Positions 2,286-31,062 of a DNA stretch of 55,154 nt are shown piece by piece. The stretch's first letter is position 1; every line of letters begins with the position of its first letter. The position numbers were made by a program, and so were the translations under genes. The DNA lies in IMG/VR virus record IMGVR_UViG_3300042366_001387, positions 1 through 55,154 of that record, one strand, 5' to 3'. Source of the stretch: a virus (lineage: Duplodnaviria > Caudoviricetes). The notes beneath the pieces are model-generated. The model ran no database searches. It saw only the letters and a list, made by a program, of their open reading frames with translations, and was not told the origin of the DNA.

Positions 2286-3707
2286 ATGCACCCAAGCCCC
2301 AAACAGCAACCCACCCCCCAAGAGCAGTGGCTCTCGGTTGCCCACCCCAGTGAATGGCACTTTGCCATCACCAAGAAACCCGGCGGTGAATGGGTTTCTC
2401 TGCCCAAGCCCTACAGAAGAGAGGCGATCTGCAACTTAGCCAGCAGCGAGAGAAAAATTACTGGCATCCGCCCCGAAGGATTTGTAAGATCAATAACCTG
2501 CGACTTTGATCACAAAGAAGACTACAGCAGTAAATACTGGCACAAATTCGCTTGCAGCAAAGAACTAATACAACTCGAACAAGAAGCAAATAAAGCTGGC
2601 TGTTCTGTATCTTTCATTCGCAGCAGTGAATCTGGTGGGCTGCACTGCTACATCTCTCTGCCCGACGCCGCCCCCTGCTGGCTGGCCCACTGGATCGGCA
2701 TGGAGCTGTTCAGGAGGGCCGGGATCGAGGCTCAGCAGGGCCAAGCAGAGCTGTTCCCCTCACGGATGGACTTCCAGCAGGATCTCTCCCTGGGGCGGGT
2801 CCAGAGCCAGGGATTCCGCCTCCCCGGACAGCAGGGCAGCGCTCTGATCGTCAACGAGTCATACGTTGAAGACTGCGATTTAATTTACAGCCAGCTCAAC
2901 AATGATTTGGAGGAGGCTAAAGACTGCCATGAATGGCGAAAATTGATTGAAGCGGCAAAGCAGCTCAAGAAGAGAACTGCCTGGGGCGCGTTGGGGGCGA
3001 GGAAAAAAGCAAATAAATTCAGCGGTGAGGAATCTGGCATCAAGTGGACTGAAAGCGGTCAAAGCGAGAGATTGCTTCTACGTATCACTACACTTGCAAG
3101 AATCAAAAACCCTCACATTACCTGCCCCGTACAACTGGGGGAAATTATCAGAGATACTGCGCTTGAGACAGAAGGTTTCAATGAGTACGCATCAGATGCA
3201 ACCAAAAAAGATTTGATGGCAACTCGTGGTGGGTGGGGCGAAAGATTGGCAAGATGTTCACTTAAAAAAGATTTCGGCAATCTGAAAGCCGTACCAGCAG
3301 GGAAGCTTGGTGGTGACAAGCATCGCAATGAAAGACTTTTCAAAGAAAGTCGAGCGAAACTTAAAGCTGTATGGAGAACATGTAAGAAAGCAGCAGAACT
3401 GAGCAAGAGGGAGCTTGCCAAAGCAGCCAGGATCAGCCGCAGAACCCTTGAGAAGCACTGGGAATACTGGGTTTCTCTCCTGGCCCACACCCCCCTTAGT
3501 AACGGTGTCCACCCAGGCAGGCACCAGTACAGAAAGGCAATAGCGCCCTCGAATCGATATAACTGTAAAAATTTTGCTTCAAAATTTGATGAAGCTTTCG
3601 TTTATCTCGATGAATTTGATTGTTTCATCGAAAATCCGTTGAAACGATTGCTAGACAGCTCAATACTTTGCAGTTCCCCGCCCCATCCGCTGCTCTCGAC
3701 TGCTTGA
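2286..3707 (+). CDS. AEP-superfamily primase / plasmid-type replication initiator with C-terminal HTH
   Basis: Motif I TCDFDH, motif II RSSESGGLH, ELFP and GFRLPGQ motifs; HTH LSKRELAKAARISRRTLEKHW. Resembles cyanobacterial plasmid Rep/primase proteins. Confidence 0.7.
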   Translation: MHPSPKQQPTPQEQWLSVAHPSEWHFAITKKPGGEWVSLPKPYRREAICNLASSERKITGIRPEGFVRSITCDFDHKEDYSSKYWHKFACSKELIQLEQEANKAGCSVSFIRSSESGGLHCYISLPDAAPCWLAHWIGMELFRRAGIEAQQGQAELFPSRMDFQQDLSLGRVQSQGFRLPGQQGSALIVNESYVEDCDLIYSQLNNDLEEAKDCHEWRKLIEAAKQLKKRTAWGALGARKKANKFSGEESGIKWTESGQSERLLLRITTLARIKNPHITCPVQLGEIIRDTALETEGFNEYASDATKKDLMATRGGWGERLARCSLKKDFGNLKAVPAGKLGGDKHRNERLFKESRAKLKAVWRTCKKAAELSKRELAKAARISRRTLEKHWEYWVSLLAHTPLSNGVHPGRHQYRKAIAPSNRYNCKNFASKFDEAFVYLDEFDCFIENPLKRLLDSSILCSSPPHPLLSTA

Positions 3708-3732
3708 CAGCCTGGACCAATGGTGCTATGGT
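3704..3732 (+). promoter_or_regulatory. sigma70 promoter with operator copy 1
   Basis: TTGACA-17-TATGGT; GGACC-AAT-GGTGC at 3714-3726. Confidence 0.85.
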
Positions 3733-3760
3733 TTGAATTGTTACACGATCCCTCTCTTGC

Positions 3761-4153
3761 ATGTCTCTGCTTGACCTAAAAGACAACGGATACACCGCTT
3801 GCGTAAAGCTTTCTCAAGGAAATCCTGGTGCAGTTACTACCATTGTCTTGCTCCTTAAATACGCGGGCGATATTGACAAAGATTCCGCGCTTGGCGGAAT
3901 AGGGTCTTTGCTTCAGTTGGATCAGCTTGGTATTTATGGCTCACGAATTTGGATGCTTTATTCCGATGCTTGCAATAGAAGCTTGCCAAAGATGGTTGCG
4001 CTTCTTCGTGCTGTTCAACTCGGTATCCTTGATACTACTACTCTTCAGCATGGCATTGATAACTATGGGAGGGGGCTGGATGTTGACGGGGTGCTGGAAA
4101 TGGTGAAAAAAGAGCTTAAAGGTTTTGATGACACGGTTGCAGCTTACTCTTGA
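3761..4153 (+). CDS. Conserved phage hypothetical protein (SxGNPGA motif)
   Basis: LSQGNPGA...LDQLGIYGSRIWMLYSDAC pattern; first gene after the promoter. Confidence 0.8.
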   Translation: MSLLDLKDNGYTACVKLSQGNPGAVTTIVLLLKYAGDIDKDSALGGIGSLLQLDQLGIYGSRIWMLYSDACNRSLPKMVALLRAVQLGILDTTTLQHGIDNYGRGLDVDGVLEMVKKELKGFDDTVAAYS

Positions 4154-10886: not shown

Positions 10887-11082
10887 TTTGTTCGCTAAAG
10901 TTTCACTTATCGGTGGCCCGTATGATGGTCTTTCCATGAAAGTAACGCCGTCACACTGGATTTGCGTCCCCGAGTTTAATTGCTTTGGGGAGCTTGAACA
11001 TGTTTACGAGCGCGTCGCACCTAACAGATTTGAATACTGGAAAGTGCGTCGATGCTGCGATCCCCTGCCTCCTATTCGTTAG
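10873..11082 (+). CDS. Hypothetical protein
   Basis: LIGGPYDG motif common in small phage ORFs. Confidence 0.65.
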   Translation: MPQADLFAKVSLIGGPYDGLSMKVTPSHWICVPEFNCFGELEHVYERVAPNRFEYWKVRRCCDPLPPIR

Positions 11083-11095
11083 ACAGTGCTCGAAA

Positions 11096-11884
11096 ATGTC
11101 TCAAGCTGACGCTTTTGATTGTTGCACCAAGATAATCACGCGATTGTCTGAAATAGAGCAAGAGCATTCTGTTGAGATTCTCTACGCGGCAGAATCTGGC
11201 TCAAGGGCCTGGGGTTTTGAATCCCCCGACTCAGACTATGACGTGCGTTTCATCTATAGACATAAAGAAGACTGGTATCTGAAAGTGATGCCAGATAGAG
11301 ATGTTATCGAGTATCCAATTGTTGACGAGTTTGACTATTCTGGCTGGGATGTTAGAAAAGCTCTGTTTTTGCTGAATAAGGGCAATCCAGTGCTCATGGA
11401 ATGGCTCAGATCCCCAATGATTTACAAAGTTAATCTTGATTTCTATCAAGAGCTGTACGAACTAAGTAAGTCTTGCTTTTCAGAGATAGCATCTGCGTAT
11501 CACTATATTCATATGGCGAAGAAAAACTTTAAGGAATACTTGAAGAGTGATTTAGTTAGAACTAAGAAATACTTTTATGTTCTCCGCCCTGTGCTTGCCT
11601 GTATGTGGATCGAGAAGTATCACAAATCCCCGCCCATGCCATTTGCGCAATTGCTGCACGAATGCGATGTGCCAGAAGCTGTACTGAAAGAGATCTTGGT
11701 CTTGCTCGAAAGAAAGAAAAGTCAGAAGGAGCTTGGCAAGGGGATGAGAATTCAGGTAATCAATGATTTCCTTGATGAGAAAATTGCATACTTTGAAACC
11801 ACTGCTCATGGTTTCAGTCCGGGGCAAAAAAGAACAATCGAACCCATCAATCGATTGCTGTGTAAAACGGTAAAAGCCAGATAA
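11096..11884 (+). CDS. Pol-beta-superfamily nucleotidyltransferase (RlaP/YcgL-like)
   Basis: ESGSRAWGFESPDSDYDVRFIY, SGWDVRKAL, GNPVLMEWLRSP, KKYFYVLRP. Confidence 0.92.
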   Translation: MSQADAFDCCTKIITRLSEIEQEHSVEILYAAESGSRAWGFESPDSDYDVRFIYRHKEDWYLKVMPDRDVIEYPIVDEFDYSGWDVRKALFLLNKGNPVLMEWLRSPMIYKVNLDFYQELYELSKSCFSEIASAYHYIHMAKKNFKEYLKSDLVRTKKYFYVLRPVLACMWIEKYHKSPPMPFAQLLHECDVPEAVLKEILVLLERKKSQKELGKGMRIQVINDFLDEKIAYFETTAHGFSPGQKRTIEPINRLLCKTVKAR

Positions 11885-11889
11885 CTACA

Positions 11890-12334
11890 AAAACAAGAAA
11901 GACCCGAAGCTTTCAGGGCCTCGGGTCTCTCTATGATCCTTCGCGCTTGCCAAATGGGTCGAGGGCGCAACTGTGGATCAGTCAGTGCGGGGGTGATCAG
12001 TCCCCGGCCTGCAAATACAGGACTTTGCCCGATGCAACGACTGGAGATTTCCGGTCCATGCAGAGCGGGAACACAACCCGGAGATTCCTACTGTCGCGTC
12101 TGGCGCGGATTCAGAACCAAAGAAAGGGTTGTATCGAAGATGGGTAGCTCGAAGTTGGTGAGAGAATGCCATGGCTAATGACAAGCTTTGAAATCACCGG
12201 GCGAGCATCCATCTTCATTTCCAGTATTTGCTAGGTTTTCCGGTTGCAACACTGGCAAACTCCCCGGAAACCGCCCTGCCGCCGAAGCAGGGTCTTTGTT
12301 GCGGCCTACAGCCCGGTAGGGGCTTTGAGTCGCT
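11890..12334 (-). ncRNA. Candidate large structured non-coding RNA (~440 nt)
   Basis: No credible ORF; about 10 consecutive helices plus an 8-bp pseudoknot; extended -10 upstream and terminator downstream. Confidence 0.6.
11897..11931 (-). terminator. Intrinsic terminator (primarily - strand; may be bidirectional)
   Basis: - strand GAGAGACCCGAGG/CUUCGGGUCUUUC 13-bp stem with 2 G-U pairs, then UUGUUUUU. Confidence 0.85.
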
Positions 12335-12339
12335 CAGGG

Positions 12340-12360
12340 ATTCTATCACGGATTGCGTGA
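12340..12360 (-). promoter_or_regulatory. Extended -10 promoter overlapped by palindrome TCACG-N5-CGTGA
   Basis: - strand TGaTAGAAT at 12348-12340; no recognisable -35. Confidence 0.6.
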
Positions 12361-12594
12361 AAGAAAGACCCTGCCCCATGAGCCCTCGTCTTGGTCCGAG
12401 TTGAACCAGCGAATGCGCCCAAAGCATCCCTTTTCGGGCTGACAACCAAACCACCAGAGCTGATCTCGATCTGGCTGATGCCAAATAACTCTTTTCGATT
12501 CACTTTTATCTTTAATAGAAACCACTATCTTTACAAGCTTTCCAATAAATGTCTTATTGCCTTCACTGTCGGTAAAATGCAAAGATCTTTCCAT
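12346..12594 (-). CDS. Hypothetical protein
   Basis: 82-aa ATG ORF following the structural island. Confidence 0.5.
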   Translation of the reverse strand: MERSLHFTDSEGNKTFIGKLVKIVVSIKDKSESKRVIWHQPDRDQLWWFGCQPEKGCFGRIRWFNSDQDEGSWGRVFLSRNP

Positions 12595-12649
12595 GTTTTA
12601 GAAGTCAAAAGCCTGAGCTTTTTAATTCTATCACACAGTCTTTTCTTTG

Positions 12650-12883
12650 TCATGTGCCTGTAACTGGAATGCCCAAGGGCCAGATCTGCCCAGTGGTGGG
12701 GATGGTCGGGCCGGGGGGTTCGGGAGTGCCGCCAAACGAGATCGCCACGCTTGCTCCACCATCATGTACACGCGAGACAGGCTCGCGGTATGGATCGCCG
12801 CTGCCGACCACCACACCGGCGAAAGACGGGCCCGAGATGGCGATGCTGGTTTGCCCTGAAGGGCTCTGATTGATCGTTGCCAT
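12650..12883 (-). CDS. Small putative virion protein B (MATINQSP family)
   Basis: TGATG coupling to the upstream gene; paralog of 15848-16135. Confidence 0.75.
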   Translation of the reverse strand: MATINQSPSGQTSIAISGPSFAGVVVGSGDPYREPVSRVHDGGASVAISFGGTPEPPGPTIPTTGQIWPLGIPVTGT

Positions 12884-13875
12884 CAGACCATGCGGGCGAG
12901 GAAGAGAGGGGTGGCAATGGTCCCCGCAGTGCCTGCGGTTTCAGCCAGCACCTGCCATTCTTCAGTGCCTGCAGTGACTACCAGCGTGTCGCCGGGGTCG
13001 AAGGCATTGCTGGCGAAGTGGAAGCTCAGACCGAAATCAGAAGGCAGCGATTCAGCAACATAAGGGTGGAATGGCAGGCTGTGGAATACGGGGTTGCTGT
13101 CGGCGGTGTAGGCGGGGTTTGCGGTGGCCGAGGCGGTGGGGAGGGGGATGAATCCCGTGGTGCCGTAGTTGCCAACACCACTATTACTGACCCTTCCGGT
13201 TACTCCATACGAACAAAGGGTTCTAGCGACAATGCTATTAGTATAATTCGTTAGGCTCGTGTCACCAATTAGGTAGGTCCCCACCGCGATTTCTCGCCTA
13301 AGCGAAGGCCCGCGATCAAACTGAATAACTCCAGAGTTGTTGTCAATCAGCGGCGCAACATGCAGAAGCCCATTGAAAAACCCCTTGCTTAAATCCAACC
13401 ACGAACGCACCGTAACGCCTTTCAGGATCGTAAACGTCCGATCAACGCCACCGCTGCGCTTGATCGTAAACCAGCTCTGATCCGCATCCACGCCTGAGGT
13501 GTAGCGCACTAGCTCCACGGTGTTCGACGTGGCAGCAGCGAACATCTGCCAGTGGTTGGTCGTTGCGTTGGTTGTAGCGAGGAAGTAGTCCAGATACTGC
13601 GTACCAGTTGGAACATCCGTCGAAGCATTCCAGCCAGTCGCTACATGCAGCCACACGCCAGTCGTGGCAAACATGAACCAGTAGTAAGTCTTGCCATACG
13701 TCTTGGTGCCGTCGTAGGTGACTTCCAGCACGCGATTCTCAATGCCGCCATTGGCGAATGAGTCATACCAATCCGTCATCAAACCCGCGTCGATGAAGGC
13801 ATTGCGGAACAGATTAGCCAACTGGCTAGCGGTCCAGGTAGCTGTTGCGGTGTAAGTCTGTTTGGTGCAGGCCAT
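12883..13875 (-). CDS. Putative virion/tail-associated protein A, paralog 3
   Basis: MACTKQTYT...AFIDAGLM...YDGTKTYG...PLFLARMV; Thr/Ser/Gly-rich. Confidence 0.8.
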   Translation of the reverse strand: MACTKQTYTATATWTASQLANLFRNAFIDAGLMTDWYDSFANGGIENRVLEVTYDGTKTYGKTYYWFMFATTGVWLHVATGWNASTDVPTGTQYLDYFLATTNATTNHWQMFAAATSNTVELVRYTSGVDADQSWFTIKRSGGVDRTFTILKGVTVRSWLDLSKGFFNGLLHVAPLIDNNSGVIQFDRGPSLRREIAVGTYLIGDTSLTNYTNSIVARTLCSYGVTGRVSNSGVGNYGTTGFIPLPTASATANPAYTADSNPVFHSLPFHPYVAESLPSDFGLSFHFASNAFDPGDTLVVTAGTEEWQVLAETAGTAGTIATPLFLARMV

Positions 13876-13918
13876 GATCAAAAAACGAAAGAATGAGTTT
13901 TACGGAGGTGGCTAGCTG

Positions 13919-14617: not shown

Positions 14618-15616
14618 TCAGACTAGCCGCGCCAAGAACAGCGGATTGGCAGCGTCTGCTGAGCTGTTATTGGCAAAGTTAAGTACCTCCCATTCTTCAA
14701 CACCAGCCGTGACCACGATGCTATCGCCAAAACTGAAGCTAGTGCTGGTGTAGGGGAAGTAAACACCAAAGTCCTCCGGCAGCGGCTCGTTCACATAGAA
14801 CGAATAGGAGCAGCCGAATAGGACGGGGGTGTAATTAGAGGCAAACGGCAGGTTGGTGCGCTGCAGGCGATAGGGGACGGAGATGACGTTGTTATTTGTA
14901 TCAGCACTAGAGGAAGAGCCAGTAGGGGCGCCAATACTGCTGTATCCGAAAAGTCTTTTGCTTATCGCATAGACAAAGTTTTCCGTTCTACTCCTTGCAC
15001 CTTGGCTCTGCGCGTAGCTTCTGCGCAGCCTGTAAATATCCTGAAAATGAACCCGTCCTATGCTGGTATCACTCGTAGTGCTTGCTTCCATCAGCATATT
15101 CACAGCATGATGGAAAAATACCTGATCCAAATCCAGCCACGGCACCAGCGTCGCGGAACTTGGCGTGATCATAAATGGATAAGGCGTTGCGCCATTCCTG
15201 ATCACAAACCACGAATAGTCCGGGTTGTCGGTGCTGGTGTAGCGAACGACGTTAATCTCTGTGCTGTTTGACAGCGTGCCAGCCAGTGAAAAATGGTTGG
15301 CCGTGGTGTTGGTTGCCGTGCTGTAGAAATCCGTGTATTGCGTCCCGGTTGGCACATGCGTCGTGGCGTTCCATCCGCTTGCTACACTAATCCCGATTGT
15401 GCTAGTTGAAATGACAAACCAGTAATAACAGGTGCCGTAAGTCTTGGTGCCGTCATATACCACCTGCAAGATTCTGTTTTCAACATTGCCGCTCAGGAAT
15501 GAGTCATACCAGCTCGTCATCAAGCCAGCATCAATAAACGCATCCTCCAGCAACTGCGCTGCACTTGATGCAAGCCATGGGGCAGCCGCTGAATAGGTTT
15601 CCTTAGTGGCGGGCAT
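14618..15616 (-). CDS. Putative virion/tail-associated protein A, paralog 2
   Basis: TKETYSA...AFIDAGLM...YDGTKTYG...PLFLARLV. Confidence 0.8.
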   Translation of the reverse strand: MPATKETYSAAAPWLASSAAQLLEDAFIDAGLMTSWYDSFLSGNVENRILQVVYDGTKTYGTCYYWFVISTSTIGISVASGWNATTHVPTGTQYTDFYSTATNTTANHFSLAGTLSNSTEINVVRYTSTDNPDYSWFVIRNGATPYPFMITPSSATLVPWLDLDQVFFHHAVNMLMEASTTSDTSIGRVHFQDIYRLRRSYAQSQGARSRTENFVYAISKRLFGYSSIGAPTGSSSSADTNNNVISVPYRLQRTNLPFASNYTPVLFGCSYSFYVNEPLPEDFGVYFPYTSTSFSFGDSIVVTAGVEEWEVLNFANNSSADAANPLFLARLV

Positions 15617-15847: not shown

Positions 15848-16135
15848 TCACGACTGCGGCCAAACCCCGGCACGCTTAGCCGCAATATGGTCGTCTAGCG
15901 TGAACATTCCGCTGGCCGAGGATTCTGATACCTCTGTGTTTTTGCCCAGTAGCTGAGCCGGAATAGCCAAGACACTGCCAGCCACTTCTCCACCGAAGCT
16001 GACGGCAACGCTGGGGCTGCCGACGACCTTGCGCGACTGCCGGAACGGCGTACCACTGGCCTCGATGTCGTCAAAGCCGATCCCCGATAGCGTGACACTG
16101 GCCTGCCCTGCTGGTGATTGGTTGATGGTTGCCAT
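15848..16135 (-). CDS. Small putative virion protein B (MATINQSP family)
   Basis: Paralog of 12650-12883; TGATG coupling. Confidence 0.75.
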   Translation of the reverse strand: MATINQSPAGQASVTLSGIGFDDIEASGTPFRQSRKVVGSPSVAVSFGGEVAGSVLAIPAQLLGKNTEVSESSASGMFTLDDHIAAKRAGVWPQS

Positions 16136-17208
16136 CAGATCATCCTCGCCAGGAACAGTGGAGAGGCGCCGGTCACGGCAGAGGCGTTAGCGGCGAAGTC
16201 GAGCACCTCCCATTCCTCAGTGCCGGCGCTCACCACGAAGGTGTCACCCTGACTGAATGAGTTGGTGGCGTAGTGAAAGGTTAGGCCAAAATCACTTGGC
16301 AATGATTCCGTGATGTACGGCATGAACGGCATACTGTGAAACACAGGATTGCTGTTGCTGGTAAAGGCAGGGTTGGTGCCGCTGAAGTTGCTGGGGAGGA
16401 TGATGGTATGAGCGCCAAAGCCGCCGCTGCTGGGGGAGCCGAGCTGGTTGGTGTTCGCGGAAAAACGCTCAGCATTTGCAAAAAAATTATTAGAACTATT
16501 TCCAGGCGCTCCATATCCAAGGATTGCTATGCCCGTCGAAGTAAATGAGTTTGATGTAGCCAGTGTGCCCGCGTAATTATTTGAGCTTGTGCTTCCATTA
16601 AGGGCGCCACCTAGTGCTAGATCCCGCCTAAGCGAAGGGCCGCGCATAAGACTTAACACGCCACCGCGATGAGTCCAGGTTGAAGGGTAGACCCAGACAA
16701 AGCCAGCAAAAAATCCCTTTGCCAAATCCATCCACGGCTGCACAGTCATGGCGCCATTGACGATAGTGAAGCAGCGCCGATCTGCGCCGCTCTTAAGGAC
16801 AAACCAGCTTTGATCCGTGTCCACGCCACTGGTGTAGCGCACCAGCTCTACAGTATTGGCAGTGGACGCACTGAAGATTTGCGAGTGGTTGGCTGTTGAG
16901 TTTGTCGTGGTGGCGAAGAAGTCCAGATATTGCGTGCCAGTCGGCTGATCCGTCGAAGCATTCCACCCCGTTGCTACATGGAGAAACACTCCACTGGTCG
17001 AGAACATAAACCAGTAGTAAGTTTTGCCGTATGCCTTAGTCCCGTCGTAGGTGACTTCCAGGATACGATTCTCGATGCTGCCGCTCAGGAACGAATCGAA
17101 CCAGGCTGTCATCAGCCCAGCATCAATAAACGCATCGCGGAAAAGGTTGGCCACTTGGTCTGGCGTCCAGGTAGCAACTGCCGTGTAGGTTTCTTTGGTG
17201 CAGGCCAT
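16135..17208 (-). CDS. Putative virion/tail-associated protein A, paralog 1
   Basis: MACTKETYT...PLFLARMI. Confidence 0.8.
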   Translation of the reverse strand: MACTKETYTAVATWTPDQVANLFRDAFIDAGLMTAWFDSFLSGSIENRILEVTYDGTKAYGKTYYWFMFSTSGVFLHVATGWNASTDQPTGTQYLDFFATTTNSTANHSQIFSASTANTVELVRYTSGVDTDQSWFVLKSGADRRCFTIVNGAMTVQPWMDLAKGFFAGFVWVYPSTWTHRGGVLSLMRGPSLRRDLALGGALNGSTSSNNYAGTLATSNSFTSTGIAILGYGAPGNSSNNFFANAERFSANTNQLGSPSSGGFGAHTIILPSNFSGTNPAFTSNSNPVFHSMPFMPYITESLPSDFGLTFHYATNSFSQGDTFVVSAGTEEWEVLDFAANASAVTGASPLFLARMI

Positions 17209-30387: not shown

Positions 30388-31062
30388 ATGACTACACCAA
30401 CCACAGTCGAAGAACTTCTTGATTACTGGCCTGGAAACATCCCCTTTAAGGGAAGTCTTGTAAGTGACGACGGTTCTTGCATGTGCGCCCAAGGGCAAGC
30501 GTTGCATTTTATTGGTGGGCTAACCGTTGAAGAATTGCGCCATGTTGATCAAGCTGCAGCGGACAAGCGAGTTGCTGAATTGTTTGGCATCAGCCGCGCC
30601 CATTCGGTCTTGTTGCGCATTATCAACGACAAGCAACAAGGTGCGCCTTCTAGTGTTATTCGCAACCCCGAGCAAATTTTAGGAGATCAAGCGCAAGTAG
30701 TGCTTGCCTTTTGGCGACATCTTGATCACATGACACCAGCGGCCTGGGCAGCGGCCGGGGAGGCGGCCTGGGCAGCGGCCGGGGAAGCGGCCGGGGCAGC
30801 GGCCTGGGCAGGGGCCGGGGAAGCGGCCGGGGAAGCGGCCAGGGCAGCGGCCTGGGCAGCGGCCTGGGCAGGGGCCGGGGCAGCGGCCTGGGCAGCGGCC
30901 GGGGCAGGGGCCTGGGCAGCGGCCTGGGTAGCGGCCAGGGAAGCGGCCTGGGCTTCCAATGAAATCCAAGGTGCCGCTGTTATGCGGAAACGAAATCAGC
31001 CATTTTTCTTTCTGCCGCTATTTGGATTCGCAAATCCAGAAGCAGTAATTAAAGCACCATGA
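30388..31062 (+). CDS. Phage protein with Ala/Trp-rich tandem repeat
   Basis: CMCAQGQAL N-domain; (AAWA/AAGE)n tract. Confidence 0.8.
   Translation: MTTPTTVEELLDYWPGNIPFKGSLVSDDGSCMCAQGQALHFIGGLTVEELRHVDQAAADKRVAELFGISRAHSVLLRIINDKQQGAPSSVIRNPEQILGDQAQVVLAFWRHLDHMTPAAWAAAGEAAWAAAGEAAGAAAWAGAGEAAGEAARAAAWAAAWAGAGAAAWAAAGAGAWAAAWVAAREAAWASNEIQGAAVMRKRNQPFFFLPLFGFANPEAVIKAP
30738..30953 (+). repeat. 12-bp coding tandem repeat GCAGCGGCCTGG and variants (~18 units)
   Basis: Visible directly in the sequence. Confidence 0.95.

Follow-up and report, generated by a model that had tools for sequence, protein, structure and literature searches.

A modular structured phage RNA with a core related to bacterial small RNAs next to PemK/MazF-like toxin genes

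Large phage RNAs and RNA antitoxins as points of comparison

GOLLD and ROOL, both of which belong to Rfam, are large, multi-helix, phage-borne non-coding RNAs with a pseudoknot. RNA antitoxins form a second group of possible counterparts: ToxI consists of tandem 36-nt repeats that lie upstream of toxN and are cut by the toxin, and the abiF RNA, for example RCd22 of Clostridioides difficile, directly binds and neutralises AbiF, a toxin of RNase type (both according to the accessible part of bioRxiv 10.1101/2025.04.15.648962). The abiF motif is also found by itself within tRNA arrays of cultured Synechococcus phages (accessible part of PMC9964418), and a precedent for a phage RNA that mimics an RNA antitoxin is given by pseudo-ToxI of phage PhiTE (accessible part of PMC3475682).

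The RNA described here lies in a 55,154-nt stretch of DNA from a virus of the Caudoviricetes, the whole of which is called the window. It resembles GOLLD and ROOL in the features named above, but it is smaller and modular, one of its modules has a bacterial relative, and it has no Rfam match. With ToxI and pseudo-ToxI it shares a proposed logic, in which a phage-made RNA resembling the host antitoxin would keep an endoribonuclease toxin inactive (as outlined in the same part of PMC3475682). However, a likeness to a putative antitoxin RNA is shown for one module (P6-P8), a three-hairpin unit in a much larger RNA, and the toxin concerned is of the PemK/MazF family (PF02452) rather than ToxN; neither the direct repeats nor the toxin gene of a ToxI-type (type III) system was found, in the region and in the window, respectively. 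The abiF RNA is likewise structured, and its motif adjoins the P6-P8 core in phage relatives, whereas its sequence and fold differ from those of the bacterial small RNA (sRNA) related to P6-P8, and it lies upstream of its toxin gene while that sRNA lies downstream. The bacterial neighbour gene encodes a PemK/MazF-fold protein as in type II MazEF, yet a conserved MazE-like gene upstream is absent and a conserved sRNA lies downstream instead. The literature searched yielded no published description of a MazF-linked bacterial sRNA, and no MazF or PemK toxin paired with an RNA antitoxin.

A structured, non-coding RNA gene on the minus strand

The first-pass annotation had proposed a large structured RNA with a promoter-like box and a terminator, transcribed from the minus strand of a gap without a credible open reading frame (ORF), and our analysis confirms that such an RNA is real. 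The gene is conserved and non-coding and spans about 445 nt (11888-12334). Its predicted features and neighbours are as follows:

12625-12653, minus strand: second promoter-like site, ATGACA-17-TAGAAT with TG (10/12 matches), upstream of the 82-aa ORF
12346-12594, minus strand: upstream 82-aa ORF, with its TGA stop (12348-12346) inside the -10 box of the RNA
12340-12348, minus strand: extended -10 promoter-like box TGATAGAAT (TG 12348-12347, TAGAAT 12345-12340)
12300-12334, minus strand: P1 region, predicted start at about 12333-12334, inner hairpin GCCC/GGGC (12323-12320 with 12314-12311; RNAalifold)
12274-12292, minus strand: P2 hairpin CCCUGCU/GGCAGGG (7 pairs, 3 changed on both sides, 98% paired)
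12234-12272, minus strand: P3 hairpin GGUUUCCGG/CCGGAAAACC, inner UUGC/GCAA, loop feeding the pseudoknot
12222-12254, minus strand: pseudoknot of loop CAGUGUU (12254-12248) with AAUACUG (12228-12222)
12136-12216, minus strand: P4 rod of about 80 nt, four stacked helices (25 pairs, 5 two-sided changes, 100% paired)
12072-12133, minus strand: P5 three-part hairpin UACAACCC.../...GGGUUGUG, closing stem adjoining P6
11988-12069, minus strand: core module P6-P8, matched by the bacterial-only model R1; P6 12069-12028, P7 12023-12007, P8 12006-11988 with loop UGAUCA
11943-11986, minus strand: P9 module, ACUG/CAGU hairpin and GCGC/GCGC hairpin
about 11886-11932, minus strand: intrinsic terminator, 12-15 bp stem (stem scan 11932-11896 plus U tract)
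10985-11884, plus strand: convergent RlaP nucleotidyltransferase gene of an RNA-repair family (PF10127, E 1e-88)

A long ORF is absent from the gap, and the internal ORFs have just 25-68 aa. None shows a coding signal: nonsynonymous differences outnumber synonymous ones in 4/4 internal ORFs, and indels and stops accompany this excess in the relatives. The predicted minus-strand fold (MFE -175 kcal/mol, z = -3.86) was not equalled by any of 100 shuffles; since the plus strand of the same region folds equally well (z = -4.09), folding energy alone cannot choose the strand. The RNA is assigned to the minus strand because of the asymmetry between G-U and A-C cells (63 vs 11), on which the first-pass annotation had also relied.

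The structure was assessed in an alignment of eight related sequences with 119 pairs, the controls being partners slid by 1-3 columns. In the alignment 96.0% of cells are paired, compared with 37.7-47.8% in the slid controls, and 15 pairs are changed on both sides against 0-5; in none of 500 shuffles did the share of paired cells, the number of pairs or the covariation score reach the observed value. Most of the helices proposed earlier are borne out, with two-sided changes in P2, the rod, the distal part of P6, P8 and the terminator. An exception is the CCUAC/GUAGG helix, in whose place both RNAalifold and variant L284 prefer GCCC/GGGC (4 pairs, invariant across the 5 rows with letters); neither helix covaries, and in the L132 type the P1 interior differs and is closed by GCGACAG/CUGUCGC. 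P3, P5 and P7 are nearly invariant, with 7/9 pairs of P3 never varying and the 18 pairs of P5 showing one-sided changes only. The proposed pseudoknot is upheld by 7 countable pairs that are 89% paired and include 2 two-sided changes (G-C to A-U and U-A to C-G). Other parts differ among relatives: the L132 and L284 types lack the tip of the P4 rod, and the P9 module, present in the window, L002 and L284 and in similar form in L131, L136 and L143, is missing from L004 and L005. The closing element of P5 (CAACC/GGUUG, UU and CCCGC) recurs in most phage relatives and is absent from the bacterial RNAs. A long-range pairing of GCAAAUAC with the U tail, suggested by RNAalifold, was dropped as implausible for a terminated transcript.

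Both ends of the gene carry the signals that had been predicted. The extended -10 box is kept in all variants of the window type (TGATAGAAT in L002, L004 and L005; TGATACGCT in L284), and the L132 type has TGCTATAGT at the aligned position, while promoter activity is not visible in the RNA-library contigs. The terminator was recovered by a terminator scan, and its sequence varies while pairing holds (12 pairs, 100% paired, with two-sided change in 1 and one-sided change in 4). In L005 the RNA follows a different upstream gene and similarity to the window begins at the -10 box (TCCGTGATAGAAT), and in L002 the downstream gene is different; together these swaps indicate that the RNA is a self-contained unit.

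Contigs from RNA libraries provide evidence of expression. Three are identical to the window, namely one of 462 nt covering 11909-12363 (run X3), one of 391 nt covering 11924-12314 (run X5, same study) and one of 181 nt covering 12143-12323 (run X17, second study), and pieces 85-95% alike to the RNA region, with unlike flanks, occur in run X18 from a third study. The stretch is present in part in 20/22 runs listed, 8 of them RNA, and all runs come from lake, freshwater or sediment samples. A transcript start near 12333, as suggested at first, is not confirmed, as the longest of these contigs extends to 12363. In four RNA runs there is no contig on 10900-11808 or 12415-13900, an absence of cover that is evidence neither way.

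Searches of databases set this RNA apart from described families. Rfam gave no match at the gathering threshold in the whole window, and at E<=10 in 11700-12600 there was none on the minus strand and just two chance-level matches on the plus strand, located on the terminator; accordingly the RNA matches no family of Rfam 15, those for tmRNA, RNase P, SRP, 6S, introns, GOLLD, ROOL and ribozymes included. ARAGORN found no tRNA or tmRNA in the RNA region, as had been noted by eye, and a single tRNA-Met elsewhere in the window. Among 50,697 phage records, BLAST found none that matches the region. A viral scan with a 14-mer from P3 gave more than 117 stretches, and nhmmer upheld only the already known contigs among 122 loci; a two-part P3/linker pattern retrieved solely the 4 known contigs from the viral collection and, from a metagenome scan, 2 unrelated stretches that are both coding sequence. 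An origin from a diversity-generating retroelement or another repeat was set aside, a second copy of the region being absent from the window. The RNA is well supported as a new structured family with a pseudoknot and expression evidence. The earlier suggestion of a new or highly divergent class holds in that no Rfam family applies, and has to be qualified in that the RNA is modular and its P6-P8 part has bacterial relatives.

The P6-P8 core, its bacterial relatives and their toxin genes

Homology of the core was assessed with R1, a covariance model built from 51 bacterial sequences only, with which the window was scanned on both strands with filters off. R1 matches 12069-11971 over its full length, with a modest score (26.4 bits, E 1.9e-5) that is to be read in the light of the bacterial RNAs having been found with a search pattern derived from the phage family. 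For the same reason, the most conserved letters are common to phage and bacterial RNAs partly by construction. This is the single match below E 0.6 in 55 kb (runner-up 9.1 bits), and the model matches 26/36 viral loci. The bacterial features occur in the window in the same order: P6 with a CUC bulge, a linker of the form GGGC-N(1-3)-AAGUCC, P7 and P8, the linker (here GGGC-A-AAGUCC) running from the 3' end of P6 into the start of P7. P6-P8 is a member of a widespread bacterial sRNA family adjoining PemK/MazF-like toxin genes.

The bacterial sRNA is about 95 nt long and has its own promoter and terminator. A promoter with at least 8/12 matches ends 4-12 nt before the RNA in 35/50 loci, against a mean of 3.5 and a maximum of 9 in shuffles; in locus L174 P8 is followed by a terminator, and bacterial P7 and P8 covary, with two-sided changes in 9/21 pairs. 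The bacterial sRNA starts at P6, whereas the window core is internal, with about 265 nt (P1-P5) before it. The core accounts for about 82 of about 445 nt, and a bacterial counterpart was not found for P1-P5 or P9. Window P6 carries a 22-nt insertion and window P8 is shorter than bacterial P8, its loop being UGAUCA as against GAUUGCAA in 38/51 bacterial RNAs; a palindromic P8 loop was rejected as a universal feature, as it occurs in those 38/51 but just some phage variants. The idea that the MazF-linked unit is repeated in P1-P3, based on the three-hairpin order and GGAG...UUGCAA in the P3 loop, was also dropped because the likeness is by eye only; R1 gives no match there at E<=10.

In 36/51 bacterial loci a solitary PemK/MazF-like gene (PF02452, E 1.5e-13) lies directly upstream of the sRNA on the same strand, ending 8-109 nt away. 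Of the 15 loci lacking this gene, four are truncated at their start, leaving 11/47 assessable loci with the sRNA and no toxin gene. The linkage also holds in the reciprocal direction: a toxin profile matched 9/400 gammaproteobacterial genomes, 7 of them new, and in 5/7 of the new loci R1 detects the RNA 31-92 nt downstream of the toxin gene and on its strand, while one of the remaining two is truncated where the contig stops. The toxins have a length of about 140 aa, and their N-terminal half alone matches solved MazF chains. PADLOC has no model for them, and no conserved protein partner lies upstream in 31 loci. A type I style pairing of the sRNA with the toxin 5' region was considered, and nothing obvious is common to the 15 upstream regions inspected. 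From this gene linkage we infer that the bacterial sRNA acts as the RNA antitoxin of its neighbouring toxin, in a type III manner.

Relatives in phages combine the core with other elements, and modules are shuffled among them. The abiF motif (RF03085; 39-56 bits) immediately follows the core on its 3' side in 10/14 more distant phage loci, 5 of which also have a tRNA or tRNA-like gene no more than 5 nt further on. The motif, a 37-nt hairpin with the conserved loop CUCUCAACGAU and an internal loop, is not found in the window at E<=10; conversely, the abiF regions of the cultured phages S-CREM1 and S-SRM01 gave no R1 core. The relatives with core, abiF motif and tRNA suggest a family of modular multi-antitoxin RNAs. 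One phage contig of the L004 type falls in the bin of a Phycisphaerales genome, in which R1 finds just that copy.

The bacterial layout is not seen in the window, where the RNA does not lie directly downstream of a PemK/MazF-like gene. Searches for toxin genes of PF02452 and of PF07751 (Abi_2) gave 0 matches in the window and none in any of 5 related phage records, of which three have a completeness of 92-100%; the window record is 69% complete, and a toxin gene elsewhere in this phage is possible.

Candidate functions of the phage RNA

As the phage records searched contain no such toxin gene, we infer that the window RNA is an antitoxin mimic. We propose a model, which in our estimate stands about an even chance, in which a modular phage RNA with antitoxin-like modules neutralises host RNase toxins. 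The separable hairpin modules P1-P9, set between the extended -10 promoter and the intrinsic terminator, would make a stable RNA of about 445 nt, in which P6-P8 would be a copy of the bacterial sRNA encoded, in many phyla, directly behind a solitary PemK/MazF-like endoribonuclease gene. The binding site of the toxin would be the linker GGGC-N-AAGUCC, kept single-stranded between P6 and P7. Abundant during infection, the phage RNA would soak up host MazF-like toxin once the host antitoxin RNA decays, and this capture would prevent abortive infection.

A broader proposal with two linked parts, which we consider somewhat less likely than not, is that an unreported type of bacterial toxin-antitoxin system (a solitary MazF-fold endoribonuclease with a downstream three-hairpin sRNA) is answered by phage antitoxin-cassette RNAs. 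Freshwater and cyanophage-like phages could string mimics together, with the MazF-linked core and the abiF motif as two of them and P1-P5 and P9 perhaps directed at other toxins. In relatives with abiF the modules might be released by tRNA processing, while in the window type the whole RNA might be stabilised as one large fold.

Other explanations have to be weighed against the antitoxin mimic. It is conceivable, though we consider it unlikely, that the RNA does a different job, as a sponge or regulator of a host RNase, RNA chaperone or polymerase, or as a scaffold, with P6-P8 being a reusable folding or stabilising unit. About 80% of the RNA (P1-P5 and P9) is unexplained yet conserved and covarying, and both the shuffling of modules among relatives and the 11/47 bacterial loci with an sRNA and no toxin gene agree with such a role. 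A neutral folding unit, however, would not be expected to be linked so closely, and in both search directions, to a single toxin subfamily in different phyla, nor to be joined in relatives to abiF, an experimentally established antitoxin motif. We regard it as rather improbable that the RNA instead partners the phage's own 82-aa protein, either as the RNA antitoxin of a toxin used for exclusion or addiction or in a ribonucleoprotein; a shared ancestry of such pairs would then account for the likeness to the bacterial sRNA. The gene-then-RNA layout, with the stop codon within the -10 box, is as in bacteria, the ORF accompanies the RNA in 4/5 window-type variants (59-98% identity, C-terminal half nearly invariant), and the contig reaching 12363 runs 30 nt upstream of the predicted start into the ORF end. 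Yet the gene before the RNA in L005 is a different one (a 202-aa ORF weakly matching DNA_processg_A), and the core occurs with no 82-aa ORF in the L132 type and in about 20 further relatives. The protein is also unrelated to the MazF-like family (hhalign probability 0.2%) and matches no Pfam, PHROG or PADLOC family, with no Pfam hit even at E<=10. It falls into just 2 clusters in a large protein search and only unnamed viral clusters in Atlas (0.86-0.87), and an AlphaFold model from 4 sequences is unusable (pLDDT 47). Its C-terminal GRIRWFN..G.WGRVF presumably resembles a cold-shock-domain motif.

The same ORF raises the question of whether the RNA is a long structured 3' untranslated region that stabilises or regulates the ORF's mRNA in cis. 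The promoter-like site at 12653-12625 before the ORF, the failure to find a terminator between ORF and RNA, and the RNA-library contig that spans the ORF stop codon are all compatible with this; on the other side, the extended -10 of the RNA itself is kept throughout the variants, the RNA can follow unrelated genes or tRNAs, and its bacterial counterpart is an independent transcription unit, which together make this reading very improbable. Hardly any weight falls on a DNA-level element (an origin, packaging or recombination site) or a decayed gene remnant: the plus strand folds as well as the minus strand and there are palindromes in P8 loops, but G-U cells outnumber A-C cells, compensatory changes keep RNA pairs, RNA-library contigs cover the region, there is no repeat elsewhere in the window, and a coding signal is lacking.

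If the antitoxin-mimic model is true, the RNA would represent a natural, modular and RNA-only counter-defence against RNase toxins that is common in lakes. To our knowledge, RNA-only counter-defence is so far known essentially from one laboratory-evolved case, pseudo-ToxI. It would also imply that the MazF-fold toxin and the sRNA downstream of it form a new protein-RNA toxin-antitoxin pair, one that is widespread in bacteria and easy to test. Asking which modules copy host RNAs beside toxin genes could offer a route to the functions of large phage RNAs, and even if the decoy idea is wrong, the RNA family would still be suited to structure determination.

The convergent RlaP gene adjoins the RNA in 3/5 window-type variants, and PADLOC has no model for it. 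RlaP extends damaged RNA ends with added nucleotides and contributes to the restoration of cleaved tRNA (accessible part of bioRxiv 10.64898/2025.12.29.696909), and its presence next to the RNA fits a local theme of countering RNase toxins.

Borders, variants and expression of the RNA gene

The IMG/VR record of 55,154 bases, whose completeness was judged to be 69%, has a gap of about 460 nt in which no ORF is credible; it is bordered by the stop codon of an 82-aa ORF on one side and by the convergent RlaP gene on the other.

Features of the locus
12346-12594, - strand: 82-aa ORF, upstream of the RNA gene
12348-12340, - strand: promoter-like -10 box TGATAGAAT, at the 5' start of the stretch
11932-11886, - strand: terminator (12-15 bp hairpin and U tract), from a terminator scan
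10985-11884, + strand: RlaP nucleotidyltransferase gene (RNA-repair family; PF10127, E 1e-88), convergent with the RNA gene

Closest phage variants (window-type)
L002 (= L003): 92% identical to the window
L005: 88% identical to the window
L004 (= L006): 86% identical to the window
L284 (= L285, L286)

Relatives were found in IMG/VR by neighbour-gene and pattern searches, and comprise only five distinct window-type sequences and a more distant type, L132 with six near-identical loci and the shortened forms L141, L144 and L145. The first-pass annotation had proposed an RNA running from an upstream -10 box to a U-tailed terminator at its - strand 3' end, and both borders were recovered: the terminator scan reports the latter, and the box is retained in variants (TGATACGCT in L284; TGCTATAGT as its counterpart in the L132 alignment), in every case 5-6 nt ahead of the conserved GCGAC that opens the first hairpin, P1. 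The 82-aa ORF adjoins the RNA in four of the five window-type variants and RlaP in three; L005 has another upstream gene, its likeness to the window beginning at TCCGTGATAGAAT, and L002 has another downstream gene from just past the terminator. The RNA gene is thus a self-contained unit. L132 (6880-6930, +) and its near-identical loci carry a tandem duplicate of P6 (CCCGCUCUGC-loop-GCAUCGG twice), and L144 and L145 are without P5 and the first P6 copy, a comparison that shows the family gaining and losing modules. A 17,102-base contig of a lake Phycisphaerales (Planctomycetota) MAG, L227, is an L004-type phage contig with the RNA; its binning is a weak hint of a possible host, or an artefact.

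The region is non-coding, because nonsynonymous codon differences (1-20 per comparison) predominate over synonymous ones (0-6) in its four internal ORFs of 25-68 aa, and relatives carry indels and stops; no codon-pattern conservation was seen in these ORFs. As had been claimed, no Rfam class fits: Rfam gave no match in the whole window at gathering thresholds and, at E<=10, only two chance-level + strand hits in the RNA region, on the terminator. ARAGORN reports one tRNA-Met in the window, outside the RNA region.

Part of the stretch is contained in 20 of 22 listed public runs (14 studies), eight of them RNA libraries, with sources that are all lake, freshwater or sediment. Four RNA runs were compared with window 10900-13900.

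Assembled contigs identical to the window
11909-12363: X3, 462 nt
11924-12314: X5, 391 nt, study shared with X3
12143-12323: X17, 181 nt, second study

Three pieces from X18 (third study), 85-95% alike and with flanks unlike the window, are diverged relatives. Such contigs record presence in RNA libraries only, not ends, strand or level. The X3 contig reaches 30 nt farther upstream, past the start predicted near 12333, which is accordingly tentative.

Fold and strand

The RNA has an MFE of -175 kcal/mol (z = -3.86), and none of 100 shuffles of the - strand folds as well, in keeping with the structure first proposed. Since the + strand folds just as well (z = -4.09), energy cannot by itself identify the strand; the RNA is assigned to the - strand by the excess of G-U over A-C cells (63 to 11 in the alignment and, counting only the window, 8 to 1), a result that bears out the original argument from G-U pairs. 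Pairing was counted for a structure checked by hand (21 helices with 119 pairs, pseudoknot included) on eight closely related alignment rows; as several have inherited changes in common, each count refers to cells and not to independent events. Of 771 cells, 96.0% pair; shifting all 3' partners by 1-3 columns lowers this to 37.7-47.8%. The compensatory changes sought in homologues were present, with both sides altered in 15 pairs, compared with 0-5 after the shift. No column shuffle among 500 reached the observed values, except for further pair types (450 of 500). Support is strongest for P2, the four-part rod P4, distal P6, P8 and the terminator; P3, P5 and P7 are nearly invariant. The proposed pseudoknot has seven countable pairs, two of them with compensatory change, and half of the rows fail to pair at one position. 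The CCUAC/GUAGG helix could not be confirmed, as it competes with GCCC/GGGC, which RNAalifold picks and L284 extends; neither helix covaries.

A core shared with a bacterial sRNA

Bacterial genomes were scanned with a pattern (CCGCNYTGC, 4-30 nt, GCATCGGG, 2-4 nt, AAGTCC) derived from the phage family, returning 109 stretches in many phyla, of which 81 are distinct sequences with a motif span of at most 45 nt. By eye, and without use of neighbouring genes, 51 were chosen for P7 and P8 hairpins; the other 30, mostly G+C-rich coding-like matches, and the longer-span stretches were left out. RNAalifold gives the 51 sequences 21 pairs, nine with both-side changes; P7 and P8 covary heavily, P6 and the linker being fixed by the search pattern. 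Of 50 loci, 35 have a promoter match (at least 8/12) that ends 4-12 nt before the sRNA, and in 30 of the 35 the distance is exactly 9 nt; shuffles gave 3.5 such loci on average and 9 at most. L174, with promoter TTGACT-17-TATTAT and a terminator after P8, gives an sRNA of about 95 nt. Rfam assigned no family (18 loci at gathering; L174 at E<=10).

In 36 of the 51 loci the sRNA follows, on the same strand, a PemK/MazF-like gene of about 140 aa (PF02452, E 1.5e-13; N-terminal half matching solved MazF chains) that ends 8-109 nt upstream of it; four of the other 15 are truncated at the locus start. Conversely, a toxin-profile search hit 9 of 400 sampled gammaproteobacterial genomes, seven of them new relative to the RNA pattern. 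In five of the seven, R1, a covariance model built from the 51 bacterial sequences only, places the sRNA on the toxin strand, 31-92 nt downstream; of the other two, one runs into a contig end and the other lacks the sRNA. P6 itself covaries in these toxin-first loci (CCUG/CAGG). In 31 loci the toxin is not preceded by any conserved protein gene, PADLOC has no model for this toxin, and we found no description in the literature searched of a MazF/PemK toxin with an RNA antitoxin. As the simplest account, we infer a toxin and RNA antitoxin, since the only conserved partner of a solitary MazF-fold RNase gene is an sRNA that has its own promoter; the pair is analogous to type III toxin-antitoxin systems, but with opposite gene order and no repeats. 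The bacterial locus L260 (~3400-4050, +) has the sRNA without a MazF-like gene, followed by ORFs that look HicB/HicA-like by eye.

Searched with filters off, the window gave one R1 match (12069-11971, 26.4 bits, E 1.9e-5; next best 9.1 bits, E 0.62), and 26 of 36 viral loci match at E<=0.01. The sharing of letters in P6 and the linker is partly by construction, which does not apply to the order and shape that P7 and P8 have in common. The first-pass suggestion of a new or divergent class therefore stands as to Rfam, but not as to relatives, since the P6-P8 core is matched by bacterial R1.

abiF partners and readings of the phage RNA

A viral scan for the P6/P7 junction (GCATCGGGC, 1-3 nt, AAGTCCTG) returned 37 stretches, and nhmmer confirmed 25 of 33 new loci as relatives, most sharing only the P5 closing stem and P6, P7 and P8. 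In 10 of 14 related loci an abiF RNA (RF03085, 39-56 bits) lies 10-110 nt 3' of P8, and in five of these ten an ARAGORN tRNA or tRNA-like gene follows within 5 nt. This 69-nt gene (L133, L137, L142, L158; L142 8656-8765, -; L138 3037-3149), called tRNA-Ile(GAU) or, in L138, an odd tRNA, is below the Rfam tRNA threshold and looks like a processing handle to release the upstream RNA. Glutamine-II riboswitch aptamers (RF01704) in L140, L143 and L151, within 1-2 kb of the RNA on the opposite strand, suggest cyanophages. In cyanophage-like relatives a ribonucleotide-reductase-like gene lies upstream of the RNA-abiF-tRNA unit and a calcineurin-like phosphoesterase gene (172-196 aa) downstream.

Calcineurin-like phosphoesterase
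L132 7432-7950: PF00149, E 2e-6; equivalents in L141, L142, L144, L151, L156, L140

[quoted passage not shown] In the cultured Synechococcus phages S-CREM1, S-SZBM1 and S-SRM01, abiF stands by itself in tRNA arrays, without the core; the account of the S-CREM1 match in PMC9964418 proposes no target.

abiF directly upstream of tRNA
S-CREM1 (L273) 1403-1617: between tRNA-Asn and tRNA-Gly
S-SRM01 (L274) 1501-1616

Neither locus has an AbiF-type gene nearby or a MazF-type core, and their lone abiF could be an orphan antitoxin RNA freed by tRNA processing.

PF02452 and PF07751 (Abi_2) are absent from the window and from five related phage records (three 92-100% complete). Because phages have the sRNA-like core without the toxin, often joined to abiF, we give an even chance to the phage RNA being an antitoxin decoy or mimic against a host toxin, for which PhiTE pseudo-ToxI, likewise a phage-made RNA antitoxin mimic as PMC3475682 presents it, is a precedent. 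The window RNA would then be the largest form of the family, the core set between P1-P5 and P9, and would end in a terminator in place of abiF and tRNA. RlaP is described as adding nucleotides to damaged RNA 3' ends and helping to restore cleaved tRNA (bioRxiv 10.64898/2025.12.29.696909); as context only, RlaP and the phosphoesterase, of the very broad Metallophos family, are in line with a theme of coping with cleaved RNA.

Some other RNA function, in which the core would be a reusable folding unit, is possible though doubtful. Partnership with the phage's own 82-aa protein is rather unlikely: that ORF accompanies most window-type variants, but in L005 the RNA lies behind a different gene. 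The X3 contig, in running past the predicted RNA start, would suit a cis-acting 3' UTR, which we consider improbable, and a DNA-level element, with which the equal folding of the two strands agrees, is scarcely credible given that the G-U excess points to a - strand RNA. The antitoxin-mimic reading is accordingly the one we favour.

The C-terminal half of the 82-aa ORF is nearly invariant (PEKGC.GRIRWFNSDQ.EG.WGRVF.SRNP) and recalls the start of a cold-shock domain; the ORF has no Pfam match, and its predicted structure has a pLDDT of 47. Elsewhere in the window, 16 overlapping repeat copies of 12-nt period at 30701-30988, within ORF 30388-31062, encode a four-residue peptide repeat. Repeats of 143-300 nt and 66-77% identity (13452-13751, 16785-17084, 15402-15544) connect the - strand genes 12883-13881, 14618-15616 and 16135-17208, which are paralogous structural genes, perhaps tail-fibre-like.
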